From Alphaproteobacteria bacterium (GTDB taxonomy: Bacteria; Pseudomonadota; Alphaproteobacteria; Micropepsales; Micropepsaceae), in NCBI GenBank assembly GCA_040382295.1, contig JBEIFU010000001.1, positions 1 through 59,932 on the forward strand: DNA of 59,932 nt, read 5' to 3'. Positions within the stretch are counted from its first letter, which is position 1, and each line of letters opens with the position of its first letter. The translations under genes and the position numbers were made by a program. Of the stretch, positions 9,174-38,262 are shown in pieces. A model generated the notes under the pieces. That model searched no databases. It was given only the letters and a program-made list of their open reading frames with translations, and was not told the DNA's origin.

Positions 9174-9175
9174 CC

Positions 9176-10422: not shown

Positions 10423-10432
10423 GGGCGAGACG

Positions 10433-13559: not shown

Positions 13560-13761
13560 TGAACCACCGGATCGCTGACGCGGTCATGAGGCGGGCAATC
13601 TCGAACATCGCCCAGCCGACCAAGATCGAGAACACCATGGCGCGCAACACCATCAGGACGGCGACCACCAGATAGGCAAAGCTGCCGGGCTCAAGTTCCG
13701 GCTTCTCGTCGTCCTCGGGGGGTTCGTGCTTTGGAAACCTGACAATCTCACCCACGATCAT
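13552..13761 (-). CDS. Small membrane protein (start uncertain; the ORF is open to 13812)
   Basis: 'FAYLVVAVLMVLRAMVFSILVGWAMFEIA' forms two hydrophobic segments. Confidence 0.45.
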   Translation of the reverse strand: MIVGEIVRFPKHEPPEDDEKPELEPGSFAYLVVAVLMVLRAMVFSILVGWAMFEIARLMTASAIRWFNG

Positions 13762-21550: not shown

Positions 21551-21748
21551 ATGAAAGATGAACCCCTGCCCCCGCTCTCCGATCTCCTGAAACCGCTCTC
21601 GGCTAAGGTCATGCCGACATCCGCCAAGCTCAAGCAGAACGGCGGCATCATGAGTGATGCTGACGCAACAGCCCTGCAGCGACGAGAGAACGCCCGACCT
21701 CAACGATGGAACACGACGAAGTTCAACTTCGGGAAGGGTCTGAAATGA
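21551..21748 (+). CDS. Hypothetical protein (65 aa)
   Basis: Coupled ORF at the end of the operon. Confidence 0.4.
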   Translation: MKDEPLPPLSDLLKPLSAKVMPTSAKLKQNGGIMSDADATALQRRENARPQRWNTTKFNFGKGLK

Positions 21749-21751: not shown

Positions 21752-21779
21752 GGCCGGGCATAGCGCCCGGCCTTTCTCA
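21752..21779. terminator. Hairpin terminator at a convergent junction
   Basis: GGCCGGGC-atagc-GCCCGGCC followed by TTTCTCA. It sits between the (+) operon end and the stop of the 4403-aa gene. Confidence 0.55.
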
Positions 21780-24700
21780 TTCCGGCATGATGTCCATCTG
21801 GCGCTCGTAGAGCCGGTCCCGCTGCCCGTTGATGCGATCCACGGCCCGGTCCAGCGCACGCTCGTCGATCATGTTCCGCTCAAACTGCCTCACAAGAGAC
21901 CGCTCCTTGGCGTCCAGCTCACGATTGATGCGGTCAAACTCGATCTGCCAGGAAACAAACCCCGTCTCCACATCCTGCGGCTTGAGCTTCACCCCAAAAG
22001 AGTTGAGCAAAGCGGCGCCGGGATCATAAGGCGCGTTGCTGTTCCACTGGCGAGCGTCACCCATCACGGCCCGCAAAAGCTGCTCCTGATACCAAGAGTT
22101 GGGGATCCAGACCGCCGACGGCATGTAGGATTTCCAGAGGTAATCGGCGCGCGCCGCCATGCGCTCGGAGAACGTGTCCGTCAGCGGGTTGAAAATCTCC
22201 TCGCCGGTGAAGGCCGTCTTGTTCAAGTATAGCTCCATCCCGATCATCAGCGGGCCGCCGACCTGCAGCCATGACGGGATGTCTCCCTGCAGGTCAAACA
22301 CATCTCCCGCCGGGATCCAGCGCCGCACATCAAGGAACACCGGCATTTCGTCCTGCAGCCATGGCATCCGCATCATGCGCGGCAAGCCTATGTCGGTGAA
22401 GGGGACGCCGATCCAAGTCTTGCCCTGCTGGTCTTCGCGCATGCTGTTGCGCTCATCTTCCTCGTCGTCATCGGACGGCGCAACTGCATAGGCCAGCGTG
22501 TTCAGGGCTTGGGTGATGATGATGTACTTGGCGATCTTCCACGGCCGCTCTGCCATGGTCTGGGCGATCTTCGGGATGGCGCGGTAGGTATAGCCGATGA
22601 ACGGCAAGACCGTCGTGCGGGCGACGTTGATCCACGGCGCGCGGATGTCGTAGTTCAGGAACTGGTCCCTGGCCTCGATCGCCGCCTCGTCGATGGTCGC
22701 GCCCTGCTTGCGACGGCGCAGGTACAGCGCCATGCGGAATAACTGATCTTCGAGCTGGTAGGCTCTCAGCATCCCGCCGTCGACGGCCTTCAACGCCCCG
22801 ACGATCTTGTCCATGACAAGGCCGATCTTGCCAAACTCTCCCTCAAGGCCGCCCTTTCCGCCGCGCATCTCGTCAGCGATCTGCTGCAGGAGGGGCTGCA
22901 GGACGTTGTCGCGGATCTCCGATGTCACGAAGTCAGCGCCGAAAGCCCCAGCCTGGGCGGCCTCCTGATAGTCAGCATCGCCCCTTATGTAGGATGCGAC
23001 CCCGGCAAACAGGTCCTCAGTGCGAACGTCCGCCATGTCCATGAACATCCAGTTGGACATCATGTTGTTCATGTGGACAACCGGGTTGCGGGCGGTCTTG
23101 TTCAGCTTCCACTGCGTCAGGATCTTCTGATAGAAAAATGGGCTTTGCAGTTGCCGCAGCTCCTCCATGTCGCGCCAGATATCGGCCCGCACATACATGC
23201 CGGCCAGCGCCCCATAGCGGGCCGCTTGGGACTTGGCGATCTTCGCGTCAGGGACCTTCACCCACTCGAGGTCGGTGTTGATGAAGATGCGGCTCAGGAA
23301 CCCACGGCGCTCGGGGTTCTCGTCAACTTTTGCATCGGCCGGTGGCTTCTTGGTGGCCCACTGCTCATTCTTGGCGATGTCCGCAAAGAACCGGCCCGTG
23401 GCCAGATCGTGGGCCATGAGCTGGTACGTCTTGGCGATCGTGTAGCGGGCGTCAAGGATCTCCCCCATTTTCGCCCGCTCAGCCTTGGTAAAGTCGCGCC
23501 AGAGCGTGACCTTTCCGTTGTTCTCTCCGCGCACCTCGAACGTGCCCCGGTCATCGTAGTTGTCGATCGAGGCCGGGATCTGCTGATCGGCCGGTAGGTA
23601 CACCCGACGCACCATCCTGCCGCTTGGGGATTCCATCCCGGTCAGCGGGTCAATGTTGGACGTAGACCGCACCTCGAGGACTCGGATCATCTCCCCGACT
23701 TGGGGCTTGCCGCGCCGCGCGCCAAGGAACGCCTCGTTGTCCTTGAAAATACGCTCGATCGCGACCTCTTTGAATATGCCGCGTCCCTTGAACTGGTCTC
23801 CCACGATCCTGCGGCGCCGGGATCTGCCAAGAGCCCGCACCATCGCCTCAAGGGATCCCACGTCCTCCTCGCCCTTTGCGTAGACCCGGTGCAGGTACTT
23901 GCCCTTGTTGCGCTCGTAGGATTCCCGTGAGATCAGACCAAGCTCGACCGCCTCAAGCCCCATCTGGTCGATCGCTTTGCGGATCGGCTCGGAAAGGTTC
24001 TCCATCGTCGCGCTTGGAAGCTCCTCGCCAGTCATGATCGCCTGCAGGGTTTTCAGCTCATCAACGCTCAGGTTTGCCTTGGCGATGGCGTCGATGTGCT
24101 CCTTGCCCTCTGCCGTCAGGATGGCCTCGTCAACGCCGCGCCGCCGGTCCCTCTCGACGTATTCCTCTGGCAGTCCGTACCTGTCGACGATACCGGCGCG
24201 CACGCGCTCCACCAGCGGGCTCATGAAGCCCATCTTCTGCTCGACAACCAGATTGCGGATCACCTTCTCGGCCGCCTTGCCATAATTCCAGCGGCCGTAC
24301 TGATCGAGGCCACCGACGGCCATGAACGGGATCCGGAAAGCGGCATCTATGGGCTGCGTCATCACGGTGCGCAGGAACGACTCTTTGCGGTGCTTGACCG
24401 GCGTCTGCATGGTCACCCCGGACGTGACGGGCTGTCCCACCATCGCGCTTGCGACCCGGTTGGCCCCGCGCTGTGCCTTGGCAAAGCGAACCTCGGCCGC
24501 CCGTTCGGAGATCGACATCGAGGGCCCGCCCATCGATTCAAGGATCTGCTGATCGGGGGCCACGTCCTCGGTCATCCATGGCGGGATCTGGCCGCGCTGC
24601 CCTTCCGTGAAGTCCTGGCGGCGCTGAACATTCCGCGCCTCAACCTCGCCAGCCAAGCGAACGTAAACCTGCTCAGGCGTCAGGCCGGTCTTGGCAACCA

Positions 24701-27700
24701 AAGCGGCCGATCGGCCACCCTCAATGTTTCCGCCGGTCTGGAAGCCTTCTATGTTTTGAACGGAGTGCTGCAGCTCATGCAGGATCACATCCCTGATCTC
24801 GTCTGCGGTCAGAGATGGGTTGAGGGTAATCCTTGCGCGATTGAGTGGGGTAGCCTTGTAGAACGCGCCCCGTGTTGGCCCCTTCAATCTTCGATCGAGG
24901 GCAACATCTATCGTTTTAGCCCCAAGAATTGGGAAGGCATCATATAGCTCCGGATGGTCAAGGATGTCCTCGAGCTTTGCCATGTAATCGGTGTTTACCG
25001 CCCACGGGTCAGCTTGGAAGTTTCCTCGCAATTCAAGCATGGCATCCGGCTTGATGGCAGAGCCAATATCGTTGATCTCAAACCGCCACTTCCCATCAGC
25101 GCCCTTGAACCATCCGGTCTTGGCGATGATCTCGTCACGGGTCGCGCCGTTCTTCTCCATCTTCTTCGCGTCTGCGAGCATGATCTTGCGACCACCCTCG
25201 CCCGCCTTATCAAGGTTTCTCGATGCCCTCTCTCCCGCAAACATATACCGAACGCCGCCAGCCGTTTCGGCGGTCATCTGTTGGCCACGCCGCCCCACCG
25301 CCCCAGCGTTGATCTTGGAGAGAACCGATTCCGCGGTGGTGAAGCCCTCGCCGCGCAGCGCCGACCGGAACGCCTCGATCAGCGACATGATGCGCTCGAA
25401 CGCCGACCGGACAAACCCGGTCTGCTTTTGCCCCGCGACCCACCGCGCAAATCCCTCCGCAATGACCTCCTCGAGGATCTGTTCCTCGGTCAGCCCCATC
25501 CCGCCATATTCTCGACGCTGTTCCGCAAGCAGATCTGTCTGCCCCAAGGCCCACCTCTCAAGGGCATCCCACTCAGCCTTGCGGAATAGACCATAGGGAG
25601 ATCCGCTCCAAAGCCGAGATGACCGCAGCGCATGGATGACCTCATGCCGCAGGGTGCCAATGGCCGACGGGTTGACGCCGCTGGTCTCGGTGTCCAGCGC
25701 CACGGTGATCATGCCGCTAAAGAACGCCCCATCAGCCTCTATGGTGGTGCCGTCCCCCAGAACGCCAAACAGCTTCTCGACCACATCCACGTCAATATCG
25801 GGCAGGCCCAGCTTGGAAGCCTCTTTCTTGAGGTTCAGCGCGATCGAGCGGGCCTTGATCTTGTCAAACGGGGTGGCGGGCCGCTCCACCTCCAAACCTC
25901 CGCCCAACTGCTCGCGCTGTGCGCGCTTGGAGAGATTGGTGGCTGTGTCGGTCGGACCTTTTGCTTTGGAGAACCGCGCCCGCTCCTGGCCGTCCCGCGA
26001 CGGGATGTCGGGCAGGGTCTCGCCGGTGATGGCGCGCGCCTCGTTCTTGTCGACGTTGGTCTCGTATTCCGTTCCCAGGTTGTCGGCATAGATCTTCAAG
26101 ACCCGCTCAAGATCGGCCCGGCTCATGTCCTTGCGCCAGATCTTGTCTTGGCGCTTCATGAAGTCGCCCACCAGCGCGATGACAGCGCGGTTTTTCACAT
26201 ACTTGTTGCCGCCCTTCGCGGTCACAATCACCGCAAACTGACCGCTCTGCATGAACGACACGCGCAGGATATTGTCCTCGTCCGTGACGACGCGGCTTCC
26301 CGGGTTTCCCTGCAGGAACTCCGTGACCATGCTGATCTCCGGGAACCTGACCGGCTGATCTGCCATCGCGCGGGCGGCATCAAAATTCGCAGGCAGGAGG
26401 ACACCCTGTTTCAGGTTGCCATCGCTGTCCGTGTAGTAGGTGATCAACCCTCTCTCGAGCTGCGCGAACCCGGCCGGGATGTTGCCGGTGATCATCTGGC
26501 GCGTCTCGCGGCTCTCCGTTTGACCCAGATCAAACTGCCGCATGATCTGGGATTGGGTGAACGCCGGAGACGGGTTCCACCTGTAGTCAGGCATATCACC
26601 CATGAGCCGCGACAGCGGGACGCGGATCTCCTTGGCGGCGTCCGCCACCGCAATCCGAACGGTCATCGCTGATGCGGCCGTCGGGCGCCGGCTGGCCTTG
26701 GTGATGTCGACACCGAGAGCCACAGCCGAATAGGTGGTTGCCTCGTCGGCGGAGACCTGCACCGTGATACTGCCGTGCCGTCCGGGGCGCAGATCGCCAA
26801 GCATCCGCGTGATGTCCATGAGCCGCTGCTGTTGAGCCCCGATGTCCGCAATGGTGCGGTTGATCGCGTCTTGGGCTTTGTCCTTCTGCTTGTCGGTCTC
26901 AGCCTTCTCAAGGCGCTCCTCTTGAGCCGCCAGCCGGTCCCTCAGAACCTGCTCTTGAGCTGGCATCGCATCCCGCAGCGTCTTGGTCTGTTCGGTCACG
27001 AACGCATCCGCGCTCTTGCCATCCAGCGCGCGGGCAACCTCCTCGTTGACCTGCTCGGCCGTGTAAGAGCGGCCAATCTTCTTCACGTCGACCGTCTCGA
27101 TGAAGGCCGCGCGTCCGAACGGGCTGGTTTCATCGCTGGCCGGGACCAGCTCGGTCTGGTTGATCGTCTTGGCGTCCAGCTCGAGCACCTTGGCCTCGAG
27201 CGCGTTCATGCCCATGCGATCGAGGTTGTCGATCATGTCCTTATAGGAGGTCTCGATCTCGTCGTAGATCTCATCCACCAGATCAGGCGGGAACGACACC
27301 AAGCGCCCGGTGAACTTCGAGGCAATATCGGTGTTATTGTCGCCCGGCCAGATGTCGACCATGGCCGAATAGACCGGGTTCTCCCGCAGGAAGTTGGCAA
27401 CGACGATGTCGCCGTACTGGTTGATGAAGTCGGTCACGTTGTCGAGCGAGACCGCGCCCTTCTTGGATGCGGTAGTATTTGCATTGAGCGAAGCCATCTT
27501 GCGCATGAGCACAGCCGCCGGTCGCTTCTCCACAGACAGATCCGAGATGCCGATGGTAAAACCTGGGAGCTGTGTCTGCCCCGTGCGATGGATCCGGCCC
27601 AGCATCTGCATGAAAAGGTCGATGTTCGGTTCGGCCTGCAGGATGATCATATGGCGCGGCTTGCCATCGTTCCCCGGCTTGTTGGTCGCATGCATGCTGA

Positions 27701-30700
27701 ACCCGGTCGAGCCGGAGCGGTTGATGACCAGCGCATCCAGAGCCCCGGAGTTATAATCATTCATCACGCGCTTCTTGCCAGCCCCGGAGGACTCGCGCTT
27801 GGTGATAATCCCGTCCTCGATGATCATGGATCGCCCGGTGATCTCACCAACATTGATCCCGGCCGCGCGCAGGCCATCCATGATCGCATCAATCGGTGAC
27901 CCCGCCAGACCGCCCAGATCCGCATTCAGGACGAACTGCCGAGCTTCCTCGAATGCGTCAAGCGCCTGCTGGCCGCCGTGCTCAATGATGTCGTCATCGG
28001 TGAGGTAGATGTATTCCTTGGTGTCCTTGTCGATCTTCCTGGTCACTCGCCGCAACCGCCGAAGGTATCGTTCCAGAATGACGTTGAACGGGAGATCGAA
28101 CTTCTCTCCGACCCGCGCACCGACGGCCGCCATGTGCTCGGTCATGATTGACGCATTGGTGTTGGACAGGGCGATGATCGGCTTCTTCCCGTCACGGAAC
28201 AGAGCGATGGCCTCCTCGATGGCCGATGGAACCTTGATGGCCAGGAGGAACTGCGCGGCGACGTTGTGCATGACGCTCGCGAAGCCCTGTGATTTCAGTC
28301 CAGATGAGCCGGTTGACAGGTCATCGGCCATGGCCTCCGCTTCCTGTTTCATACCGTCGATGAACGACTTGCGAACATCCTCCATGACATCAATGTCAAG
28401 ATTCAGGATTGCGCGCAGCACCCCAGCCCCGCGTTCAGCCAAGGCCCTATCCGTGATGTAGATCTCGGGATCCATCTTGATCCCGTCATATGAACGCTCG
28501 CGCCGCGCATACTGGCCCGAGTCCACAAGCATGTTGGAGATGACTTGCTGCAGCGGGACCCCGCCCTTCACAATCATGTCGGCCAGATCGTCAATGCTTC
28601 CGACGCTCAGCGCCAGATCGGTCGCGCTGTAGAGGGACATGACATAGGGGTTCTTGGCATAGGTCGCGCTCGAGTAGACGACGCCTTGGGCTCCTTGCAG
28701 AAGCTCCCGGATGAAAGCCGAGCGCGGAACCTTGTCGTCGTCGGCCCGATCGTTCGGCCGCCCGCCGCCTGCCTCGTGGCTCTCATCCAGAACGAACATG
28801 GCGTTGCCAGCGACAGCCCGCATGGCATTCATGCGCTCCGTGTCGCGGCCCTTGACCTGCTGCATCTGGCTATAGGTCGTGAACAGCATCTTCTGGCCAT
28901 CAGGAAGGCGGCCCGTGGCCTGCATTGTGGTCATCGCCTTGCCCAGAGGCTTGGCCGTCATGGAATAGAGCTTGTCTTCCGGCTCAGACGAGAGCGGGAC
29001 AGCGTCCTTGCCGCGCAGATCCGGGTTAGTGACCATGACGCTCTCATGGATCTTCGGCATGCCGATGTCGCGCATGTCGCGGATCATGTCCGAATAGAGC
29101 GCCGAGTCCTTGGTGATGAAAACCGGGGTCAGGCCCTTGAGCATCGCATAGCGCAGCATCGCTGCCACGAACCGGCCTTTGCCCACGCCGGTCTGGTCCC
29201 CGATGATGAAACCTTTCCCCTTGGAGACGTTGTCGATCGCCAGCGCCAAGGCGTCCACCTGTTCTGCGGAGAAGTAGCCACCCACGGCCTGATCGGCGGA
29301 CCCAAGAAGCTCATCGAGCGTATATCCGAGCTCCTTTGCCACAAAGGCGTCAATGTCGCCCACGCGCGCCTCGAGCGCATCAAGGGCGCGGGACATGGCG
29401 GCCTGCATATTGCGCGGGACAAGGGTGCCAACGGCGAATGTCGCCTTGGAGCGCGGCTCGTATTGAACCTGAAAGACTGTTTCGACCTCGAGGTTTTGCC
29501 GGTCTAGGTCAGGCCGTGGTACACCCGACCCAGGAACTCGATCAGCCTCTCCGGTTCCGGGTTCGGTCCCACCTCCAGATCCATCCTCTTGTCCGGTTTG
29601 ATCTGGTCGGGCTGGATCGGCCACATCTGGCTGAACACTCCCGCTCGTTCCTGCAGGGTCTCGGACTCCTCCGACATCAGCTCCCCCACCTGTTCCAGCC
29701 ACCGGGCTGCGGACAGGCCGTCCACCCGCTCCACCGTCTGGGCGAGAAGCTGTGCCGCCGTCGCCGGCCCCGCCTCCCGGACCATCCGATTGATCTTGGC
29801 CGCGAGGGCCAGCCGGTAGTTTTCCAGCGTTAGCGGTCTGACCGGGCGCGGTATCTCCACCGTCCCGATCCCCTGCATCGACCCTTCTGGGGTCCAGCGT
29901 ATTTTTTCCATCAAGTCGCTCTCCCAACTCTTGCCACGTCGTATAGATAGGGGGCGGAACCTTCGTTGGATAGGGTTTTGTTGCGTTTTTTCCCTTCCCC
30001 GCGATAACGATCACATCCACGGGCCAGCCAGCCCCCTGCCGCTCATACAGACGGCCGTCGACCGTGAAGTGCTCAGAGACCCAATACCCGTCATAGAGCT
30101 GCTTGTAGAAGCGCCGGGTCATCTCGCCCTGGTATGCCTTCTTACGGGCGTCGATGTCGGTTTCCTTCTTGCCTCCGATGATCAGCACGGCCATGCCGTT
30201 TTCAGGCAAGCCCTCGAGTCCCTTCATGACGATCGCATGGTCAATCTCGGTGGTGGTGCCGTCCCCCATGGTGAAGGTCTGCACGATTCCGGTGTCGCTC
30301 CGCACCTTGCCAAACGGCGGGTTGGTCAAGAGCAGGCTGTAGGATCCCGGCTCATGCGTCATCGCATCGCCCTCGGTGATCTTCGCCTTGTCGCCCAGGA
30401 CGCGGCGCAAGCCCTCGACCCGCTCCGCCTGCATCTCGTTGGCGATGACCTTGGCCGGGTTGGCTTCCATCAGAAGCATCCCGTTCCCGGCCGTGGGCTC
30501 ATATGTGGTCTTGTTGGGGCCAGCCTTGCCCAGCCGCGATGCCAGATAGGCCAGCGGCGCCGGGGTCGAATAAGCCTGCATGAGCATGCTGGTCGATGTG
30601 CGCTGGGCGAGTTTCGGCTGGGACTCGTACAGATCCATCATATCGCTGTAGATCTCGGCCTCAGACTGGCCAGCCTCGTTGCCCTCGGCCACCAGCTCGC

Positions 30701-33700
30701 GCGCCCGCAGCACCACGGCAACCTCGATCGCCTCCTCGAGATCCTTCGCCATGTCGGGGCTGTAGGCGGTCCCGGTCAGGTCCTTCACAAGGGCCCGCGC
30801 CTCCACGATCGTCTTGAACCCAACCCCCTTGCGAAACTCAGCCAAGAAACCATCGGTGATCGCCGCCCGCCACGCTTCCGGCGTCATCGGTTCGGGCTCA
30901 GGCTCCGGTTCGGGATCCGGCTCAGGCTGTGCCTCGGCCGCCTCCTTCTCCTCGCGGATCAGGCGGGCCATCTCCTGCATGACGGCGCGGTCATCGTCCA
31001 TGTCGGCAATGGACTCGCCCTGAACCTCCATCTCGCCACGGATCGAGTTGTAGGAGTCGCGCAGCATCCGAGAAAGCTCTGCGAGCGGACGCTTCAACTT
31101 GTCCGCAATGGAGATCGCATATTCGCGGAACCGGCGAAGGCCGCCCTCGACGTATAGCTCTCCCAAGCGAACCGTCAGCATGAAGATCTTTGGGTCGAGG
31201 CCAGCATTGAGTTGCGTCCGCAGCGCCTCATCAATCTGCGCGGCCAAGTCATCAGCCTCCGCCTGCTTCTCCGGGCTCAGGAGTGGTTGCTTGACGGCAG
31301 GCTTGGCGGCCGGGCGTGGCGCTGCCGGGCGCTGGGCTGGCGCAGGAGCGGGCTTCTCCGCCTTGGGTGGTGTCGGTGCGGGCGCGGGCGCCTCGGGCGG
31401 CTGTGGGGCCGGCGCGGGCGGCGTTACGGGCTCGGTGCCGGTTTCTTCTGGCGCAGTTTCAGGTCCAGCTTGCGGGCGGCCGCCATCATTTCCCGGTCGT
31501 TGTGCCGCTTGCCCACCTTGAGCATTGCCCGGGCGGCCGCCCCCTGCGCCGCCGCCGAAGAGACTTGGGGCTGCGGCTTCTTCGTCTGCGGTGATTTCAT
31601 TCACGATCTCCTGTGGTGTCCGGATTGGTTTTGGCTCGACCCCAGGCAGGTTGCCTTGGTCAATGCGTTCCTTCATGGCCTCGTCGACATATGCCTCGAG
31701 GAACTCCTGCATCCGACCCTTGCTGACCATGCGCGTGCCGGCCGGGTTGAAAAAGGCGTCCTGAACCAGCTCCGCGATCGGGTCAAGCGGAGTGGCGAAG
31801 GCGTCGATCTGCGCGCGGGCCCCTTTCAGATCCTCGTCACGGGTCCGGAAGTCAGCAATGTTCTGCGCCGCGCTGATGATCTGCGGCGTGATGTCCATTG
31901 AAGGATCCACCTCGCCTGCCTCGATTGCTGCCTTGAGCTGGACGACGCGACCAGCGGCTTCCGTCATGGCGCCGGTGATTGACTTGATGTCGTCGTTCAG
32001 GGACTCCGACATGCGCGACAAGAGCTTTTCGTCACCATAAGCCCGGTAAAACAGCGCAGTCTGGAAGCGCCGCTGGCCCTCGACAGTCAAGCCGCCCTCT
32101 TTGGTGACCAGCGCACCTTGCGCGGTCTGGGGCAGTTTCCCGATGAAGGCGCGGATCATGTCGCGGTTGCTCGTGCTGGACATGCCGCCGCCACGGTAAA
32201 GGTCGATCACGCTGCGGTCGATCAGGCTCGCGTCGGACCGCGCGTTCTCGGATGCGGACATGGCCAAGGTTGCCGGCGTGTTGGACGCGGTGGTGAAGTT
32301 GCTCGCAACGTCGGTGACCCGGCGACGGATGATGACCGGGTTCTTCATCCCAGCCGCTTCCGGATACCGCTCCTGCACATAGGCCCGGTATTCCTCAGCC
32401 GTGCCGCGCTCGTAGGCCCGGCGCAAGCCGATGACCCGGCCATTGCCGGATTCAATCACGCGGCCGTCCATGCCGGTGATCGGGGATCCACGGTCGGTTT
32501 CGGGAGACTGGTCGAGGCGGCGCGGGTTGGGCTGGTTGGCGATTCTCTCGATCTGGGCTTGAGACGCGGCGCGGTCGCGGTCGCGCGGCTGCAGCTCCGG
32601 CGGATAGCCTTCCTGATCGGACGTGAGAAGGCTGTCTGCCTCGACCACCATCGTCTCAACGTCGACGGGGTCATTGTCAGGCGTGTCGATCGTGGTGACG
32701 CGATCCGGGTTGACCGGGCGGCTCTCTTGCGCTGGTGCTGTTACCGGGGCCTCGGCCGGGGCAGTCGTGGTGGTCGTTCCTGTGGTCGGCGCTTCTGGCG
32801 CACTTGGCGTCTCCGCTGCAGGGGTTTCAGGGGCAGGCCCACCGGCCGGGCCATAGAGGACATCGAGATCAACGGCGCCGGTCGGGACGTTGACGGGGGC
32901 GGGCGCTTCAACTGTCTGCGCAGCCGTGCCCAGCCCTGACTTGGGCGGCAGGGGTTGCCCGGACTCGATCGCATCGAGCGCCGCCAAGCCGGTCTCCATC
33001 ACATCGTTCGGGACTACAGGATTGGCCTGTTCCTCTGGCGTCAGGCGGGGGCCGCCTGCAGGGCCGCCGCCAAGGCGATCCTGATTGCGACGATCCCTCT
33101 CGCCAGCATAGACCGCGTTGCCCCATTCGATCGGCGCAGTTATGGCTTCTGCCAGCGCCTCCATGATGACCTCGCGCGGGCTGAACTCTTGCCCCGTCAC
33201 AACCCTCGCCGCTGCTTCGCCGCCGCCTCCGGTCAGGGCCTGAACGAACGTGTTGAAAACAGCATCGCCAAGCTCTGACTTGAACAGCGCACGGGCGGCG
33301 ACCCCTTGCCCCAAAGCCTCCGCCGCTGAAATCACGAGGCTTCTCAAGAGCCCTCTGCGATTTGCATCAGCAATCAATTCCGGGTTTTCGAGTGCAGCCC
33401 TCGCATCCGCAGGGGTTTCGAGGCTGACGTTGTTCTCCTGCAGCATCTCGTTGAACGAGGACCCGTATTCCTGGGCCATTGATCCGGCTGTAAGCGCGGC
33501 CACCCCTGCCGCCGGACTTCTTGTGGCGACTGTGACTGCGGTCGTTGCGGCCAGAACCGGAAGGGATTCTGCCGCGACTTCCGACATGAAGATGGTGAAA
33601 TCAAGTGGGTTGGCCGCGATCGTGCTGAGCGTAGCACCCCAAGTGTCGTCATCCTCCGCGAACAGGCGCTGCAACCTCTGGCCTGCAGGGGAGAACGGAA

Positions 33701-34988
33701 TGTCTGACGCGCGGTCGATCAGAGCCTGATGTTGAACCGCCCGTTCCTCGAGCCATTGACGGTATTCTGGATCGGCCTCCGCCCCTCTGGCGTAAACTAT
33801 GCGGGTATCGAAGTCTTGAAGTACGGTTTCAACGCTCGATGCCGGGAAGCCCTGCTCGTAGAGGTATATGATCATCTCTTGCGGATCAGTGAATGACCTG
33901 CCCTCTGGCGGCGATCCGGTAATGCCCTGATAGATGTCTGCAAGAATCCCCTCGGGGCCGATGGCTGCATCGTTGAACGATCTTACGCCCAATGAAAACT
34001 GCAGTGCCGGGAGTGTCGAGCGGGCGCGCAGAATACCGCGCGTCCAAGCCCGGCCTAGCGCCGTTCCCTCCGGGTTGTCGGGATTGTCCGGAACCAACTG
34101 CTCGGCCGTTTGGCTGATTGCGCCAGCCCGGGACGGCGGCAAGAGCGCGGCGCCAAGGCCCTCGGATACAGGCTGCAGCGGCCGTCCCTCGGTCTGGCCC
34201 AGCGCCTCGTTTCGCGCCTCAAGGCTGCGGTCGACCACCTCGGGGCGCGGCTGGGTGACGTTCCGCAGGCCCTCACCGACGATCGGGAACGGCATGGCGG
34301 ACATGACGGGCAGCATGTCAGGCCCGCTATAGGCGGCCGTCCCAAGGCCGGTGGCTGGGGCTGGCTGTGGCGCTGGTGCTGCCGTGGGGCCCGGGGATCC
34401 TGCTGGTCCGACCGCGCGCGGAAACTGCGCTGCCTGCTGGCGGATGTCGGCCTCTGGCGGTCGCATGGATCCCGGGCCGGTCAAGGCCGCACCCTCGGAC
34501 AGCTTGCTTTGCAGATCCGCGATCTCCGCCTCGAGCTGGGCCGCCTGCCCCTGCATGATCTCAAGACTGGATGGCGAGACCCCGGGCCGCCCCATCTGGG
34601 CGCGCAGGTCGTTGAGCGTCCGAACCCGCTGCTCGATCATGGCTTGCGCGGCGCGGGCGTTGCGATCGCCCATCTGGACGCCAAGCCCCATCGGGGCCGG
34701 GCTGTCCTGCGGCATCATCGGTGTCGCGTCACCCCCTCGAGTCGACGGGCGCGTGACGAGGCCGTTCACGCCAAACGGAGACTGCGTGGAATCGGCCGGG
34801 ATCACCGGGTCTGGAATCTGCGTGCTTCTGATCGCCGGGCTGGGCGTCTCTTGCGGCAGGGCCGGGGGCGTGCGCGTCGGCTCTGACCGGTTCGACGGGC
34901 TGCCGTACACTTCATCAAGGGAGAAGGTCTTTGGTTGCGCGGATGTCGTCCCGTAAACGTCATCCAGAGAGAATATCCGCTCAGCCAT
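21777..34988 (-). CDS. Giant polyvalent protein (4403 aa): ParB-like + N6-methyltransferase + strawberry-notch-like SF2 helicase + two HExxH metallopeptidase-like domains + a long C-terminal region
   Basis: Single uninterrupted ORF. Motifs are listed in the domain features below. GGAG lies 7 nt upstream of the ATG and there is a 3-nt gap to the preceding gene. Last gene of the virion operon. Confidence 0.9.
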   Translation of the reverse strand: MAERIFSLDDVYGTTSAQPKTFSLDEVYGSPSNRSEPTRTPPALPQETPSPAIRSTQIPDPVIPADSTQSPFGVNGLVTRPSTRGGDATPMMPQDSPAPMGLGVQMGDRNARAAQAMIEQRVRTLNDLRAQMGRPGVSPSSLEIMQGQAAQLEAEIADLQSKLSEGAALTGPGSMRPPEADIRQQAAQFPRAVGPAGSPGPTAAPAPQPAPATGLGTAAYSGPDMLPVMSAMPFPIVGEGLRNVTQPRPEVVDRSLEARNEALGQTEGRPLQPVSEGLGAALLPPSRAGAISQTAEQLVPDNPDNPEGTALGRAWTRGILRARSTLPALQFSLGVRSFNDAAIGPEGILADIYQGITGSPPEGRSFTDPQEMIIYLYEQGFPASSVETVLQDFDTRIVYARGAEADPEYRQWLEERAVQHQALIDRASDIPFSPAGQRLQRLFAEDDDTWGATLSTIAANPLDFTIFMSEVAAESLPVLAATTAVTVATRSPAAGVAALTAGSMAQEYGSSFNEMLQENNVSLETPADARAALENPELIADANRRGLLRSLVISAAEALGQGVAARALFKSELGDAVFNTFVQALTGGGGEAAARVVTGQEFSPREVIMEALAEAITAPIEWGNAVYAGERDRRNQDRLGGGPAGGPRLTPEEQANPVVPNDVMETGLAALDAIESGQPLPPKSGLGTAAQTVEAPAPVNVPTGAVDLDVLYGPAGGPAPETPAAETPSAPEAPTTGTTTTTAPAEAPVTAPAQESRPVNPDRVTTIDTPDNDPVDVETMVVEADSLLTSDQEGYPPELQPRDRDRAASQAQIERIANQPNPRRLDQSPETDRGSPITGMDGRVIESGNGRVIGLRRAYERGTAEEYRAYVQERYPEAAGMKNPVIIRRRVTDVASNFTTASNTPATLAMSASENARSDASLIDRSVIDLYRGGGMSSTSNRDMIRAFIGKLPQTAQGALVTKEGGLTVEGQRRFQTALFYRAYGDEKLLSRMSESLNDDIKSITGAMTEAAGRVVQLKAAIEAGEVDPSMDITPQIISAAQNIADFRTRDEDLKGARAQIDAFATPLDPIAELVQDAFFNPAGTRMVSKGRMQEFLEAYVDEAMKERIDQGNLPGVEPKPIRTPQEIVNEITADEEAAAPSLFGGGAGGGRPGNAQGGQAAQRPGNDGGRPQAGPETAPEETGTEPVTPPAPAPQPPEAPAPAPTPPKAEKPAPAPAQRPAAPRPAAKPAVKQPLLSPEKQAEADDLAAQIDEALRTQLNAGLDPKIFMLTVRLGELYVEGGLRRFREYAISIADKLKRPLAELSRMLRDSYNSIRGEMEVQGESIADMDDDRAVMQEMARLIREEKEAAEAQPEPDPEPEPEPEPMTPEAWRAAITDGFLAEFRKGVGFKTIVEARALVKDLTGTAYSPDMAKDLEEAIEVAVVLRARELVAEGNEAGQSEAEIYSDMMDLYESQPKLAQRTSTSMLMQAYSTPAPLAYLASRLGKAGPNKTTYEPTAGNGMLLMEANPAKVIANEMQAERVEGLRRVLGDKAKITEGDAMTHEPGSYSLLLTNPPFGKVRSDTGIVQTFTMGDGTTTEIDHAIVMKGLEGLPENGMAVLIIGGKKETDIDARKKAYQGEMTRRFYKQLYDGYWVSEHFTVDGRLYERQGAGWPVDVIVIAGKGKNATKPYPTKVPPPIYTTWQELGERLDGKNTLDPRRVDAGDRDGGDTAPGQTANAGKLPAGPRGQDQSDGPGGGAGDGGTASRPDGGAGGRPVRSPVAGTGGGADVGGVRDPAGTSGSVQPDVADPARPDQTGQEDGSGGGTEPGTGEADRVPGSGVPRPDLDRQNLEVETVFQVQYEPRSKATFAVGTLVPRNMQAAMSRALDALEARVGDIDAFVAKELGYTLDELLGSADQAVGGYFSAEQVDALALAIDNVSKGKGFIIGDQTGVGKGRFVAAMLRYAMLKGLTPVFITKDSALYSDMIRDMRDIGMPKIHESVMVTNPDLRGKDAVPLSSEPEDKLYSMTAKPLGKAMTTMQATGRLPDGQKMLFTTYSQMQQVKGRDTERMNAMRAVAGNAMFVLDESHEAGGGRPNDRADDDKVPRSAFIRELLQGAQGVVYSSATYAKNPYVMSLYSATDLALSVGSIDDLADMIVKGGVPLQQVISNMLVDSGQYARRERSYDGIKMDPEIYITDRALAERGAGVLRAILNLDIDVMEDVRKSFIDGMKQEAEAMADDLSTGSSGLKSQGFASVMHNVAAQFLLAIKVPSAIEEAIALFRDGKKPIIALSNTNASIMTEHMAAVGARVGEKFDLPFNVILERYLRRLRRVTRKIDKDTKEYIYLTDDDIIEHGGQQALDAFEEARQFVLNADLGGLAGSPIDAIMDGLRAAGINVGEITGRSMIIEDGIITKRESSGAGKKRVMNDYNSGALDALVINRSGSTGFSMHATNKPGNDGKPRHMIILQAEPNIDLFMQMLGRIHRTGQTQLPGFTIGISDLSVEKRPAAVLMRKMASLNANTTASKKGAVSLDNVTDFINQYGDIVVANFLRENPVYSAMVDIWPGDNNTDIASKFTGRLVSFPPDLVDEIYDEIETSYKDMIDNLDRMGMNALEAKVLELDAKTINQTELVPASDETSPFGRAAFIETVDVKKIGRSYTAEQVNEEVARALDGKSADAFVTEQTKTLRDAMPAQEQVLRDRLAAQEERLEKAETDKQKDKAQDAINRTIADIGAQQQRLMDITRMLGDLRPGRHGSITVQVSADEATTYSAVALGVDITKASRRPTAASAMTVRIAVADAAKEIRVPLSRLMGDMPDYRWNPSPAFTQSQIMRQFDLGQTESRETRQMITGNIPAGFAQLERGLITYYTDSDGNLKQGVLLPANFDAARAMADQPVRFPEISMVTEFLQGNPGSRVVTDEDNILRVSFMQSGQFAVIVTAKGGNKYVKNRAVIALVGDFMKRQDKIWRKDMSRADLERVLKIYADNLGTEYETNVDKNEARAITGETLPDIPSRDGQERARFSKAKGPTDTATNLSKRAQREQLGGGLEVERPATPFDKIKARSIALNLKKEASKLGLPDIDVDVVEKLFGVLGDGTTIEADGAFFSGMITVALDTETSGVNPSAIGTLRHEVIHALRSSRLWSGSPYGLFRKAEWDALERWALGQTDLLAEQRREYGGMGLTEEQILEEVIAEGFARWVAGQKQTGFVRSAFERIMSLIEAFRSALRGEGFTTAESVLSKINAGAVGRRGQQMTAETAGGVRYMFAGERASRNLDKAGEGGRKIMLADAKKMEKNGATRDEIIAKTGWFKGADGKWRFEINDIGSAIKPDAMLELRGNFQADPWAVNTDYMAKLEDILDHPELYDAFPILGAKTIDVALDRRLKGPTRGAFYKATPLNRARITLNPSLTADEIRDVILHELQHSVQNIEGFQTGGNIEGGRSAALVAKTGLTPEQVYVRLAGEVEARNVQRRQDFTEGQRGQIPPWMTEDVAPDQQILESMGGPSMSISERAAEVRFAKAQRGANRVASAMVGQPVTSGVTMQTPVKHRKESFLRTVMTQPIDAAFRIPFMAVGGLDQYGRWNYGKAAEKVIRNLVVEQKMGFMSPLVERVRAGIVDRYGLPEEYVERDRRRGVDEAILTAEGKEHIDAIAKANLSVDELKTLQAIMTGEELPSATMENLSEPIRKAIDQMGLEAVELGLISRESYERNKGKYLHRVYAKGEEDVGSLEAMVRALGRSRRRRIVGDQFKGRGIFKEVAIERIFKDNEAFLGARRGKPQVGEMIRVLEVRSTSNIDPLTGMESPSGRMVRRVYLPADQQIPASIDNYDDRGTFEVRGENNGKVTLWRDFTKAERAKMGEILDARYTIAKTYQLMAHDLATGRFFADIAKNEQWATKKPPADAKVDENPERRGFLSRIFINTDLEWVKVPDAKIAKSQAARYGALAGMYVRADIWRDMEELRQLQSPFFYQKILTQWKLNKTARNPVVHMNNMMSNWMFMDMADVRTEDLFAGVASYIRGDADYQEAAQAGAFGADFVTSEIRDNVLQPLLQQIADEMRGGKGGLEGEFGKIGLVMDKIVGALKAVDGGMLRAYQLEDQLFRMALYLRRRKQGATIDEAAIEARDQFLNYDIRAPWINVARTTVLPFIGYTYRAIPKIAQTMAERPWKIAKYIIITQALNTLAYAVAPSDDDEEDERNSMREDQQGKTWIGVPFTDIGLPRMMRMPWLQDEMPVFLDVRRWIPAGDVFDLQGDIPSWLQVGGPLMIGMELYLNKTAFTGEEIFNPLTDTFSERMAARADYLWKSYMPSAVWIPNSWYQEQLLRAVMGDARQWNSNAPYDPGAALLNSFGVKLKPQDVETGFVSWQIEFDRINRELDAKERSLVRQFERNMIDERALDRAVDRINGQRDRLYERQMDIMPE
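24549..25136 (-). other. Domain: second HExxH module, about aa 3285-3480
   Basis: 'TGWFKGADGKWRFEINDIG' followed by 'VILHELQHSVQNIEGFQTGG' (HELQH = 24765..24779) and 'GEVEARNVQRR'. Confidence 0.5.
25269..25871 (-). other. Domain: zincin-like metallopeptidase 1, about aa 3040-3240
   Basis: 'GTLRHEVIHALRSS' (HEVIH = 25632..25646). Confidence 0.5.
27309..29462 (-). other. Domain: SF2 helicase, strawberry-notch-like, about aa 1843-2560
   Basis: Walker A 'GDQTGVGKGR' (aa 1931-1940), motif II 'FVLDESHE' (aa 2065-2072), motif VI 'LGRIHRTGQ' (aa 2463-2471). Confidence 0.8.
29504..29911 (-). CDS. Embedded +1-frame ORF (135 aa from the ATG) inside the methylase-helicase linker
   Basis: 'MEKIRWTPEGSMQGIGTVEIPRPVRPLTLENYRLALAAKINRMVREAG...'. 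GGGAGAG lies 9 nt upstream of the ATG. The GC3>GC1>GC2 pattern belongs to this frame, not to the megaprotein frame. Confidence 0.4.
   Translation of the reverse strand: MEKIRWTPEGSMQGIGTVEIPRPVRPLTLENYRLALAAKINRMVREAGPATAAQLLAQTVERVDGLSAARWLEQVGELMSEESETLQERAGVFSQMWPIQPDQIKPDKRMDLEVGPNPEPERLIEFLGRVYHGLT
29949..30671 (-). other. Domain: N6-adenine DNA methyltransferase, about aa 1440-1680
   Basis: Motif I 'YEPTAGNGMLL' (aa 1496) and motif IV 'LLLTNPPFGK' (NPPF = 30312..30323). Confidence 0.8.
32304..32666 (-). other. Domain: ParB/Srx-like (DdrB-ParB type), about aa 775-895
   Basis: 'PPELQPRDRDRAASQAQIERIANQPNPRRL...PITGMDGRVIESGNGRVIGLRRAYERG'. Confidence 0.55.
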
Positions 34989-34991: not shown

Positions 34992-36404
34992 TCACTCCAT
35001 TGCGACGAGGTTGGTTCCATCGAACCGCGCTGTGATGGTCTGGCCATCTCTCCTGAACGTATAGACCTGTCCCGTCACAAGATCATCCCTGTTTGTTGGG
35101 AGGGGCTGTGCTTGCCTTGTCGGCTCGGTCCCTGCTGCCCCGCCAAGACCAGTCGGCGCCGCCGGATCTGCAGGAAGCGGCGAATCTGCGGTTGATGCAG
35201 CCCGACGGTCTTCCTCGGTCTGGCCGTCATAGTTGAACGTCCCTGTGAACCGCTGAGCAGTTTGAGCTGGGGTGTCGCTGATCCAGCCGCTCTCAGCCGG
35301 GCGCGTCTCGACCGTGTCAAACTGCATGCCGCCAATCGCCTTGGCATAGGCAGCCGTCTCGCTCAGGTTCTCCTCGGTCATCAGGCGCAGAACTTCTTCC
35401 GCGACAACTGCAATGAGGTTCGGATCTGGCTGCGGATCTCGCCCGGGGCTGCTTGGAAGCATCACAGCCGGAAGGTTCTCAATCCTTGTCAGCGTGGTGG
35501 ATTTCAGGTCTGCCGGATCCTCATCCGCGCGATCGGACGCTGATGGCGTGTTGGTCTCGATCACCGGCTTTCCGTCGACCCCCATGACCTCGACAGTCTG
35601 GCCCCGTGAGTTGGTCCCCATGCGGGTTTTCGTGCCGTCGCCGTTGTCGCGCCAGAAAGGATTGGTGACGCCCTCATCTGGCTGCACCCCGATTCCAAGG
35701 CCGGTGCGGATATCGTCCCGGACAGATTCCGGAACATCCGGGTTTGCAAGAACATCGAAGACCGCACTCATGTCCGTTGAGAGGCCACCGTGCGTGCGCG
35801 CATAGTCGGAGAGATTGGTGCCATTGGAATCGGCCGGATCGTACTCCCCGTTGCTCTCGAGGAAGTTTCTCATTCCGCCCTGACCGCCAAGATGGGCCAT
35901 CGCGATCATGCCAGATCGCGTGATCGGAACCCCGTTGATCGTCTGGCCAGCAAAGCGTTCCTCAAGGTTGTTGCGGTCGATGAAGTCGTTGATGTCTTGG
36001 AAGTGCCATTGCTCGACCTCCACCTGCAGATCCGGATTAGCCCGAAACTGGTCGATGGAAATACGAGGCGCCCCATTGGCGCTGGCCCAATCATCCAACC
36101 GGCCCTGACCAAACTGGCTGCGCCCAACATAGCCTTCTGAGTTGGCCGCGTTGAAGTTGCCCCCGCTCTCGGTCCCGAAAAGGCTTTCGTAGACGTTGGA
36201 AACGTCGGATGTGAGCTGGTCCTGACGGTCAATGCCGCGCTGGTAATCGGCGTTCTGCCAATCCCGGTCCTGCTGACGGTCCTGCAGTTGCCATTTCCGC
36301 TCCTGCGCGCGAAGGGCTTCCTCGCGCTTCATGCGGGCGTTCTCAACCATCTGGCCGCCCATGCCCCCTGCCGCGCCCGCCAGAATGAGTCCAAGTCCTG
36401 CCAT
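34992..36404 (-). CDS. Internal virion protein with a lytic transglycosylase-like domain
   Basis: N-terminal TM 'GLGLILAGAAGG', then 'LFGTESGGNFNAANSEGYVGRSQFG...MIAMAHLGGQGG', which is SLT/lysozyme-like. Confidence 0.55.
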   Translation of the reverse strand: MAGLGLILAGAAGGMGGQMVENARMKREEALRAQERKWQLQDRQQDRDWQNADYQRGIDRQDQLTSDVSNVYESLFGTESGGNFNAANSEGYVGRSQFGQGRLDDWASANGAPRISIDQFRANPDLQVEVEQWHFQDINDFIDRNNLEERFAGQTINGVPITRSGMIAMAHLGGQGGMRNFLESNGEYDPADSNGTNLSDYARTHGGLSTDMSAVFDVLANPDVPESVRDDIRTGLGIGVQPDEGVTNPFWRDNGDGTKTRMGTNSRGQTVEVMGVDGKPVIETNTPSASDRADEDPADLKSTTLTRIENLPAVMLPSSPGRDPQPDPNLIAVVAEEVLRLMTEENLSETAAYAKAIGGMQFDTVETRPAESGWISDTPAQTAQRFTGTFNYDGQTEEDRRAASTADSPLPADPAAPTGLGGAAGTEPTRQAQPLPTNRDDLVTGQVYTFRRDGQTITARFDGTNLVAME

Positions 36405-37044: not shown

Positions 37045-37767
37045 TTATGAGTAGACGATCGCCTGCGATTCACGGTCATAGCGGACCCGTGGGCGGCGCG
37101 GCTGTTCTGATGCTGGCCTGACGGCTGGACGCCCGGCGGGATTGGCCATGGGCGCTGTCGGCTGAGCCATTGCGGCCGGGGCTGCTGCCGATGCAGAGCT
37201 TGCCATCCTTGCGGTCTCGGCCGGCCCGCGCGCCATTGGGGCGGATCCGTTGCGAGCTGGTGCGCCAAGCCCGGTTTTCCCTGTCATCGGTGACGACGAG
37301 CCGAACATCATTGCTTCGCCCGCGCCCTCGTAGCTGGCCTTGAGGCGGTTTTCCTCGTCAATCCGAGACTGCTCCTCCGCCTCCTGAGCCTGCCCGGTGA
37401 AATAGCCCTGAGCCGCGCCCTGCACCGCGCTTCCGATCATGGCATTGCTGCCCAGATTGGACAGGAAGCCGCCCAGGCCGGTGCCCGTTGCTGCAGTCGC
37501 GCCCGTTGCTGCGGTGGCTGCACCTGTGGCCCCGGCCGCCGCACCCCCGCCGAACAGGTTCGAGACCCAAGACCCGACGCTGCCAAAGAGGCCGCCACCT
37601 CCTGCGGCGGCGCCAGTAGCTGCGGTCCCGGCACCAGCGCCAGCGACAAGTCCAAAGCCGCCGGTCAGGAAGGCAACCCCGGCGATGATCGCGACTGGAC
37701 CGATCTTCTTGACGAAGTCGCCCACCTTGCGGAACACCTTCTTGATCCCGCTGACAAGACCGCTCAT
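37045..37767 (-). CDS. Gly/Ala-rich membrane-associated internal virion protein (240 aa)
   Basis: TM 'IGPVAIIAGVAFLTGGFGLVAGAGAG' followed by long G/A repeats. Confidence 0.45.
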   Translation of the reverse strand: MSGLVSGIKKVFRKVGDFVKKIGPVAIIAGVAFLTGGFGLVAGAGAGTAATGAAAGGGGLFGSVGSWVSNLFGGGAAAGATGAATAATGATAATGTGLGGFLSNLGSNAMIGSAVQGAAQGYFTGQAQEAEEQSRIDEENRLKASYEGAGEAMMFGSSSPMTGKTGLGAPARNGSAPMARGPAETARMASSASAAAPAAMAQPTAPMANPAGRPAVRPASEQPRRPRVRYDRESQAIVYS

Positions 37768-38255
37768 TTCAAGATCTCCCGTTCATACACAAAACCCGTC
37801 TCCGTCATCTTTGCCCGCTTGAGCAGAGCCTTAGACCGAGAAGGATCCACGATCGCGTTCGTGTTTGCCTGCCTGATCAGCCTCACATCCGGACATGACA
37901 CTGCCCACTTGTGCATCGCGCGCAGCAATCGTGCCCCAGACTGCGCATGTGCGTTGTCTCGCGCATACCACAAAAGATCTGTCGCCTCGAGTACGTCCAT
38001 GACGTGATAAATCGGCTGCAGGATCCCTATGATGAACGCCTCGACATCTCCGCCACGGTCAGCCACGGCGCAGAAGGTCCCGCCGCTGGTCTTTGCGCCG
38101 TTGCGCTGCATGCACTGCACGAAGAAAGCCTTGCCCCGCTGCTCATCATAGGGGCCAAAACGGCCATAATCAGACCGGCGATGGGCATCACCAAGCAGGG
38201 CGGCCAGCGACGGGATGTCACTGAACGTCATGGTCCTGATTGATGCTCTCGTCAT
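37764..38255 (-). CDS. GNAT-family N-acetyltransferase (putative)
   Basis: 'AFIIGILQPIYHVMDVLEATDLLWYARDNAHAQSGARLLRAMHKWA' is acetyl-CoA-binding-motif-like. Start MTRASI at 38255. Confidence 0.5.
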   Translation of the reverse strand: MTRASIRTMTFSDIPSLAALLGDAHRRSDYGRFGPYDEQRGKAFFVQCMQRNGAKTSGGTFCAVADRGGDVEAFIIGILQPIYHVMDVLEATDLLWYARDNAHAQSGARLLRAMHKWAVSCPDVRLIRQANTNAIVDPSRSKALLKRAKMTETGFVYEREILK

Positions 38256-38262
38256 CTGATGC

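Follow-up and report, generated by a model that had tools for sequence, protein, structure and literature searches.

The polyvalent proteins described by Iyer et al. in 2017 (PMC5512222) draw on a repertoire of zincin peptidases, helicases of the SWI2/SNF2 clade, adenine methylases, DdrB-type ParB domains, and LPD domains. The archetype of the dyad formed by a methylase and a superfamily 2 (SF2) helicase is the DarB protein of phage P1, and Strawberry-notch (Sbno) versions are found in a few cases (PMC5512222). DarB and DdrB are both packaged in the P1 head, which DdrB enters in a processed form. The present analysis concerns a 4,403-amino-acid (aa) protein, referred to below as the giant, that is encoded in a stretch of 59,932 nucleotides of contig JBEIFU010000001.1 (assembly GCA_040382295.1, an alphaproteobacterium of the family Micropepsaceae); this whole stretch is referred to as the window. 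The giant is real and well explained, as it belongs to a known class of giant multi-enzyme packaged phage proteins. With a probability of roughly 0.7, it is a polyvalent protein of the phage type, that is, an internal virion protein that would be synthesized late, enter the procapsid, and leave it together with the DNA by way of the short tail.

Several phages encode proteins of comparable size. JC1 gp69 has 4,515 aa, takes up 22.1% of its genome, and yielded 51 unique peptides from purified virions (PMC9144972). According to the respective annotated records, the 4,602-aa gp75 of Bcep22 is encoded by the last structural gene, between an upstream acyltransferase gene and a terminator; the 4,841-aa gp30 of POI1126 comes from a large gene that ends a run of virion-associated genes; and the 3,421-aa giant of vB_Pun_Y3 ends the structural module. 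The 3,787-aa gp60 of the F116-like phage H66 is noted in its record as “verified by mass spectrometry as part of the virion,” and the 2,811-aa gp47 of phi24B is a proposed ejection protein. The C-terminal domain of N4 gp50 consists of an HExxH subdomain (C1) followed by a subdomain of ∼1,100 residues (C2), and gp50 as a whole has been likened to “beads on a string” (PMC13434306).

The giant open reading frame (ORF) occupies positions 21777 to 34988 of the minus strand, with an ATG start at 34988 and 4,403 codons plus a stop. Given the base composition of that strand, a run of 4,403 codons without a stop would arise by chance with a probability of ∼10^-62. The two ends of the window overlap exactly over 139 bp (positions 1 to 139 versus 59794 to 59932), and the window therefore holds a complete genome of 59,793 bp, circular or terminally redundant. 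The giant gene makes up 22.1% of it, in agreement with an earlier note on this DNA, which had described one uninterrupted 13.2-kb ORF covering about 22% of the genome. The ORF and the segments of its product are as follows.

21777 to 34988, minus strand: giant ORF of 4,403 aa, the final cistron of the virion operon, recognized by its motifs, its stop-free run, and its collinearity with the 4,264-aa homologue P0282
34902 to 34973, minus strand: duplicated acidic/aromatic motif FSLD(D/E)VYG, two copies 16 residues apart, aa 6 to 29 (motif search)
33069 to 34001, minus strand: N-terminal region, aa ∼330 to 640, with mildly hydrophobic Ala-rich helices at 460 to 500 and 547 to 570 (BLASTP, tblastn, and hydropathy)
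31764 to 32678, minus strand: DdrB-type ParB/Srx domain (core 771 to 890) with a conserved extension, aa 771 to 1075 (PF18763; phrog_5143, 1e-66; phrog_2299)
30960 to 31256, minus strand: conserved segment just upstream of the methylase, aa 1245 to 1343 (tblastn and BLASTP)
29889 to 30671, minus strand: N6-adenine methyltransferase-like domain, aa 1440 to 1700 (motifs I and IV, phrog_3820, and sub-threshold Pfam matches)
26382 to 29222, minus strand: Strawberry-notch-type SF2 helicase with a C-terminal extension, aa 1923 to 2869 (Pfam; phrog_14770)
25269 to 25871, minus strand: first HExxH module, aa 3040 to 3240, with HEVIH at 3115 and EEVIAEGF downstream (consensus in relatives)
24519 to 25244, minus strand: LPD23 (3249 to 3307) and the second HExxH module, aa 3249 to 3490, with HELQH at 3404 and GEVEARN downstream (PF18838 and sub-threshold matches)
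21780 to 24371, minus strand: C-terminal module of ∼860 aa (hereafter the C-module), aa 3540 to 4403 (conservation, AlphaFold2 model, and fold matches)

Several unrelated effector domains are thus combined in a single ORF: ParB, a methylase-like domain, the Sbno helicase, LPD23, and two HExxH modules. All the motifs quoted in the earlier note were found by motif search at the expected places, namely, FSLD[DE]VYG at residues 6 and 22, LQPRDRDR at 799, ESGNGRVIGLRRAY at 846, EPTAGNG at 1497, NPPF at 1556, GVGKGR at 1934, DESH at 2068, HRTGQ at 2467, HEVIH at 3115, and HELQH at 3404. Four Pfam matches scored above the cut-off: ddrB-ParB (PF18763) at aa 771 to 890 (2e-31), AAA_34 at 1923 to 2173 (1e-19), Helicase_C_4 at 2378 to 2533 (2e-15), and LPD23 (PF18838) at 3249 to 3307 (6e-15). 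AAA_34 and Helicase_C_4 together mark the Strawberry-notch type of helicase, to which this part of the protein was assigned accordingly, and phrog_14770 matches the methylase and helicase parts together (aa 1444 to 2869, 2.5e-50). Tiled Pfam scans found nothing for aa 300 to 770, 880 to 1130, 2860 to 3260, and 3500 to 4403, and searches of NCBIfam and PDB sequences with the whole protein also came back empty. This set of domains matches the one in PMC5512222, as the earlier note had proposed. The modules are separated by Pro/Ala/Gly-rich low-complexity linkers totaling ∼590 residues. No transmembrane helix was predicted, as no 19-residue window in the whole protein reaches a Kyte-Doolittle value of 1.6; the “hydrophobic stretches” mentioned in the note for the last ∼900 residues do exist but are mild.

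Two of the segments outside the Pfam matches are shared with other giants. The region around aa 330 to 640 matches the N-terminal parts of the giants from the related loci L014, L025, L027, and L033 in BLASTP searches, and aa 455 to 621 match Octadecabacter Antarctic BD virus 1 in tblastn. The segment at aa 1245 to 1343, which has no Pfam match, is shared with several “DarB-like” giants, including POI1126 gp30 and the proteins of Klebsiella phages LASTA and SopranoGao and Serratia phage Parlo (tblastn), as well as Bcep22 gp75 (BLASTP). Judging from the domains listed in PMC5512222, this segment is possibly LPD36.

The enzymatic assignments differ in strength: the ParB and Sbno helicase calls of the earlier note passed the Pfam cut-offs, but its methylase and HELQH calls stayed below them and HEVIH had no library match. 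The identification of aa ∼1440 to 1700 as an N6-adenine methylase-like domain is less secure, and it draws on motifs I (EPTAGNG) and IV (NPPF), which come in the gamma-class order, and on weak matches to phrog_3820 (DNA methyltransferase, 1e-5), to the Pfam families N6_Mtase and MTS (both sub-threshold), and to the M subunit of EcoKI in the PDB (E = 0.11, also sub-threshold). The HELQH module has sub-threshold Pfam matches to DUF6782 (5e-4), SprT (0.024), and M78 (0.026); its region is modeled with confidence (predicted local distance difference test [pLDDT] of ∼90), and the downstream GEVEARN is conserved. The HEVIH module retains an HExxH...ExxIAxAF pattern across relatives (consensus of alignment A1) and is found upstream of the C-module in 16 of the 26 related giants. 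In the structure model of aa 3040 to 3500, the HEVIH half is poorly predicted, and comparison of this model with PDB folds gave weak, non-significant matches to IrrE/PprI.

The giant is encoded among the virion genes of a portal-terminase phage, in a single operon that also includes, upstream, terL (in two pieces) and the genes for the portal, the major capsid protein, a tail-fibre protein, a second tail protein, an acetyltransferase-like protein, and a 470-aa protein with a lysozyme-like domain. Four features define the immediate setting.

21752 to 21772, minus strand: GC-rich hairpin terminator of 9 bp, 8 of them GC, beginning 5 nucleotides past the stop codon of the giant
34995 to 34998, minus strand: GGAG ribosome-binding site (direct sequence reading)
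34992 to 36404, minus strand: 470-aa protein with a lysozyme-like domain at aa 73 to 207 (phrog_26675 endolysin, 2e-20; phrog_27932 tail lysozyme)
37764 to 38378, minus strand: 204-aa acetyltransferase-like protein, four genes upstream of the giant (phrog_1249, 9e-10)

The operon content and the terminator bear out the description of this gene in the earlier note as the last one of the head-tail operon. Its reading of a 3-nucleotide gap and a GGAG site was equally accurate: the TGA of the upstream gene lies at 34994 to 34992, 3 nucleotides before the ATG of the giant, and GGAG (34998 to 34995) falls in the last codons of that gene. The 470-aa upstream product, which has no Pfam matches, is probably an internal or ejection protein. 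At the terminator, the giant gene converges with a small plus-strand ORF (∼21553 to 21740), and it is faced by plus-strand recombination genes for a PDDEXK nuclease, ERF, and an SbcC-like ATPase. The upstream position of the acetyltransferase gene is repeated in the annotated records of Bcep22, POI1126, and vB_Pun_Y3 and, according to tblastn, at the related loci L008, L023, L025, L027, and L033. The major capsid protein is distantly similar to N4 gp56 (24% identity over 163 residues). Nine neighboring structural proteins had no matches in Pfam scans, and megablast of the giant gene against phages and plasmids found nothing.

Comparison with the described systems shows likenesses of different kinds. 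Like Bcep22 gp75 and JC1 gp69 of the Lessievirus group (∼4,500 to 4,600 aa, ∼22% of podophage genomes of 61 to 64 kb), the giant is encoded at the end of the morphogenesis module, before a terminator and a few genes downstream of an acyltransferase gene, and combines a methylase with an SF2 helicase. However, the helicase is of the Strawberry-notch type here, whereas Bcep22 gp75 gives SNF2/DrmD-like matches, and the capsid lineages differ. With gp60 of H66/F116, it shares the position as the final gene of a structural operon that ends in a terminator, a duplicated N-terminal motif, and the LPD23-HExxH unit (34% identity over 250 aa); in contrast, the C terminus of H66 gp60 is a tail-700/PLxRFG domain (NCBIfam, 3e-239) that the giant does not have. 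From P1, it recalls both packaged proteins: its ParB module (aa 763 to 1020) is 35% identical to DdrB in a tblastn alignment of ∼258 residues, and the order of methylase and SF2 helicase is that of DarB, although in P1, a myovirus, the ParB and methylase-helicase parts are on separate proteins.

Two further comparisons concern the overall plan. N4 gp50 is likewise a giant ejected protein that closes a related structural module; it is built of an N-terminal membrane/injection domain, the cargo, the HExxH-containing C1, and the large C2, with long low-complexity linkers, and the giant shows the same order of an HExxH module followed by a large subdomain. The RNA polymerase that forms the cargo of gp50 is absent from the giant. 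The closest cultured relative by capsid is vB_Pun_Y3, whose major capsid protein is 50% identical and whose acetyltransferase synteny is shared. Its 3,421-aa DdrB-ParB giant is 28% identical over aa 795 to 1217 and has no BLASTP match at E ≤ 1e-3 to the methylase-Sbno part; the C-module resides there on a separate protein of 1,027 aa, encoded downstream, whose annotation is ADP-ribosyltransferase (hhalign, 98.8%).

Relatives from metagenomes and prophages clarify which parts of the protein are constant. The C-module is common to all 26 related giants compared, whereas the ParB domain or the methylase-Sbno block is present in only some of them; across the family, the termini are maintained and the cargo between them is swapped. 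The closest homologue, P0282 (4,264 aa, from a different public assembly), is collinear with the giant at 57 to 84% identity over 3,853 residues, so that the giant ORF is not an assembly chimera. P0282 is missing exactly aa 3258 to 3490, and the LPD23-HExxH cassette that these residues form must therefore have been gained recently. Four further homologues are collinear from the methylase through the C terminus, and the methylase-Sbno block is 49 to 75% identical across five homologues. The earlier note had suggested asking whether genomes with the same capsid keep the giant gene whole, and the answer is mixed: intact giants such as P0282 exist, but the gene is shorter in one relative (L008) and split in two others (L007 and vB_Pun_Y3). 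In L008, where the capsid protein is 65% identical and the upstream synteny is the same, the last gene encodes just 1,807 aa, comprising a pyrophosphatase domain, an HExxH module, and the C-module, in that order. In L007 (a 62.9-kb metagenome contig, positions 5476 to 13672), adjacent genes divide the cargo and the C-module between a 1,450-aa protein with ParB and Zeta-toxin domains, which keeps the N-terminal repeat, and a 1,223-aa protein with the C-module; vB_Pun_Y3 (L004, 15931 to 29305) likewise has them on separate adjacent genes. Two other capsid relatives, StenR_269 and DES1, encode proteins of 2,270 aa and 2,156 aa, respectively, in the slot of the giant; their likeness to it is limited to the HExxH region and a weak profile match at the C terminus.

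The C-module (aa ∼3540 to 4403) has no match in Pfam, NCBIfam, or PDB sequences. Searches of a clustered protein database revealed first seven and then 114 homologues, with N-terminal parts that vary widely and include ART-PolyVal, InPase, RadC-like JAB, ddrB-ParB, LPD1, LPD3, ResIII/SNF2, and LAGLIDADG domains. The LAGLIDADG_3 domain (PF14528), carried by the homologues P0129 and P0182, may mark an intein or homing endonuclease that is inserted in the C-module. When a profile of the C-module was run against 1.84 billion cluster representatives, 8,433 proteins reached E ≤ 1e-3, and 3,074 of them passed the stricter limit of E ≤ 1e-30. All of the 150 matches listed have the module at their C-terminal end, nearly always stopping within ∼15 residues of the C terminus, and the proteins among the matches listed span 0.9 to 5.9 thousand aa, with the longest at 5,947 aa. 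The module was also found on 31 contigs of IMG/VR, 25 of which are 45 to 71 kb in size, and the ORF that bears it exceeds 2,200 aa in 25 of the 26 tabulated loci and 4,200 aa in several of them. Prophage copies are present in Fulvimarina, Azospirillum, Aureimonas, and Dongia, the best-matching ones are in genomes of Rhodobacterales, and Roseobacter has an 838-aa ORF that consists of the C-module only; such prophage copies point to temperate phages of Alphaproteobacteria. Given that giants close the structural modules of other phages, that the C-module is represented in thousands of clusters, and that the domain set has already been described, the earlier note was mistaken in regarding this combination at such a size as unusual for a ∼60-kb podovirus; giants of 3,400 to 4,800 aa are encoded by Bcep22, H66, POI1126, and vB_Pun_Y3.

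The AlphaFold2 model of the C-module (pLDDT, 82.7; predicted template modeling [TM] score, 0.79) has 69 matches at E ≤ 1e-3 among predicted viral structures, which fall in the final fragments of numerous phage giants. In a Foldseek comparison with PDB folds, its sole match below E = 1 was the N4 virion RNA polymerase gp50 (9pnt; E = 2.4e-3, probability of 0.44). This match probably falls in the C-terminal domain of gp50 and not in the polymerase, because the 24 fold matches include no entry with the N4 polymerase domain alone. Comparison of the C-module with the gp50 C-terminal domain (residues 2124 to 3500) by hmmsearch and hhalign revealed no significant sequence link. The C-module was also considered as a version of the PLxRFG/tail-700 domain (NF032893); this was rejected, as there was no NCBIfam match and no PLxRFG motif. 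Its hhalign comparisons with the tails of the H66 and POI1126 proteins were not significant.

At the opposite end of the protein, the repeat keeps its pattern among relatives but not its sequence. The literal FSLDxVYG-like pattern was not found in the relatives, which have N-terminal tandem motifs of their own, such as LLSDEDIFG (two copies), GAFDDLIP (two to three copies), and (L)DxSGLxPLD (three to four copies). The N terminus of H66 gp60 has two copies of KPWEEF, and the prophage copies also bear N-terminal repeats. When a repeat was defined as a 6-mer that recurs in the first 70 residues with at least 5 of its 6 positions identical, it was detected in 86 of 132 full-length giants; the same test was positive in 2 to 10% of internal windows and ∼2% of shuffled N termini. 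These repeats start at around residue 3, are spaced by ∼19 residues, and are enriched in D, L, and F. No description of them was found in the literature searched. The N-terminal repeat is a candidate targeting signal.

As a packaged polyvalent protein, the giant would consist of a delivery frame and exchangeable cargo. The frame would comprise the N-terminal tandem motif with the conserved N-terminal region, the HEVIH zincin-like module, and the C-module; the cargo would be the DdrB-type ParB nuclease/NTPase, the DarB-like N6-adenine methylase with the Strawberry-notch SF2 translocase, and the added LPD23-HExxH cassette. Thanks to the linkers, the chain could be threaded through the tail like beads on a string. 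After delivery, the methylase-translocase would most likely act in cis on the incoming genome and blunt restriction in the manner of P1 DarB. For the zincin modules, the most likely task would be processing of the polyprotein itself; the proteolysis of host factors suggested in the earlier note found no support in this analysis. Packaging and injection of the giant are well supported by analogy with Bcep22 gp75, JC1 gp69, and H66 gp60, giants of matching layout that mass spectrometry has detected in virions, and with P1 DdrB and N4 gp50.

Several observations weigh against this interpretation. The genome encodes a second, separate DNA methyltransferase, so the giant is not necessarily required for the methylation of progeny DNA. 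The similarity to Bcep22 gp75 amounts to 41 residues (39% identity, E = 1e-4) and a weak C-terminal profile match (9.5 bits; hhalign P = 0.004), with no homology along the full length of gp75. The methylase-helicase part has no detectable similarity to P1 DarB (tblastn of aa 1420 to 4403 against 50,697 phage records, E ≤ 1e-5). The zincin assignment is sub-threshold in Pfam, with only the weak IrrE/PprI matches from the fold search. Finally, the N4 fold match is itself weak (E and probability as above; TM score of 0.11) and comes without support from sequence profiles.

The strongest competing explanation is that the giant is chiefly a structural part of an ejectosome that builds or extends a trans-envelope conduit for DNA, its enzymes being secondary passengers or inactive. 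It would fit the conservation of the frame (N-terminal region, HEVIH, and C-module) next to freely swapped enzymes, the occurrence of the C-module as a separate protein in L007 and vB_Pun_Y3, the proposal that phi24B gp47 forms a periplasmic conduit, and the neighboring gene with the lysozyme-like domain. Yet the protein has no strong transmembrane segment, the methylase, the helicase, and the two HExxH modules all retain intact catalytic motifs, and the methylase-Sbno block is well preserved in the five homologues, all of which makes a primarily structural role unlikely. The two explanations are compatible and do not exclude each other.

Action in the producer cell is less probable still. The giant could stay unpackaged and act late, for example, by methylating or remodeling progeny DNA before packaging; late co-expression with structural genes would permit this, and methylase-helicase pairs are also employed in restriction-modification and defence (PMC5512222). 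However, positional analogues with related domains have been detected in virions (of these, H66 gp60 shares a 250-residue segment with the giant and JC1 gp69 almost none), DdrB-ParB and LPD23 are typical of packaged polyvalent proteins, progeny DNA could be methylated by the product of the separate methyltransferase gene, and the terminal features seen family-wide are hard to explain in a soluble enzyme.

There is very little to suggest that the unannotated parts hide a virion RNA polymerase, equivalent to N4 gp50 or the crAss-like gp66, that transcribes early genes. The StenR_269 protein in the same slot is annotated as “putative virion-associated RNA polymerase” and the DES1 protein occupies that slot as well, the major capsid protein is distantly N4-like, and the best PDB fold match is N4 gp50. 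Against this, no RNA polymerase family was matched in Pfam, PHROGs, or NCBIfam, no PDB sequence was matched, the 24 fold matches include no entry limited to the N4 polymerase domain, and the HExxH region is all that the giant has in common with the DES1 and StenR_269 proteins. A further concern, that the long ORF arose by chimeric assembly (as also considered in the earlier note) or by a sequencing error that fused shorter frames, found nothing in its favor, and the collinear P0282 from another assembly, the four more homologues collinear from the methylase to the C terminus, the ORFs of >2,200 aa (some >4,200 aa) at 25 of the 26 related loci, and the even composition along the gene leave it practically no room.

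Within the reading of the giant as a packaged polyvalent protein, a broader proposal can be offered tentatively, at odds somewhat below even. The N-terminal repeat and the C-module might make up a general loading and ejection frame with an evolutionary relationship to the N- and C-terminal parts of N4 gp50, such that any cargo placed between them, be it a methylase-helicase, ParB, an ADP-ribosyltransferase, a Zeta toxin, a pyrophosphatase, or the RNA polymerase of N4, would be packaged and injected; the repeat would then be an undescribed capsid-targeting or ejection signal.

Several other features of the window were recorded. The two minus-strand pieces of terL encode the N-terminal ATPase part (56028 to 56816) and the C-terminal nuclease part (54732 to 55475). 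The ∼550 bp between them contain a 152-aa ORF (55532 to 55990) with no Pfam match, and the DES1 terminase is likewise in two pieces with an intervening ORF; a search for an intron in the split terL found no Rfam match at the gathering threshold. A 933-aa plus-strand ORF with a TTG start (57124 to 59925) runs opposite to the flanking late genes and is unmatched in PHROGs, Pfam, and the 50,697 phage records; the choice is between an orphan gene and a long antisense ORF. The separate DNA methyltransferase-like gene mentioned above lies on the plus strand at 11369 to 12538, in the early/middle arm (phrog_1008, 1.2e-18; phrog_27243, 1.5e-50). A 45-residue Pfam match to ribosome modulation factor (RMF; E = 4.9e-9) at ∼15781 to 15915 of the minus strand, within an ORF at 15490 to 16557, may represent a phage-encoded RMF-like domain, with overlapping ORFs on both strands blurring the gene limits. 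A tRNA-Met (CAT) gene at 4342 to 4418 of the plus strand adjoins minus-strand genes for an HNH endonuclease and the small terminase subunit (4450 to 5085 and 5824 to 6423).

Taken alone, the giant is one more well-dissected example of its class and changes little. What makes it interesting is mainly the very large, uncurated C-terminal family, along with the N-terminal repeat and a possible link of that family to N4 gp50. The family context opens testable questions about the loading and injection of proteins of 400 to 600 kDa by podophages: natural cargo swaps and split versions reveal what is frame and what is payload, and the N-terminal repeat is simple enough for a direct test of whether it signals packaging or ejection. 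If the idea of a general frame is true, it would unify the N4 virion polymerase with the DarB-like giants and offer a route to engineered protein delivery by phages.

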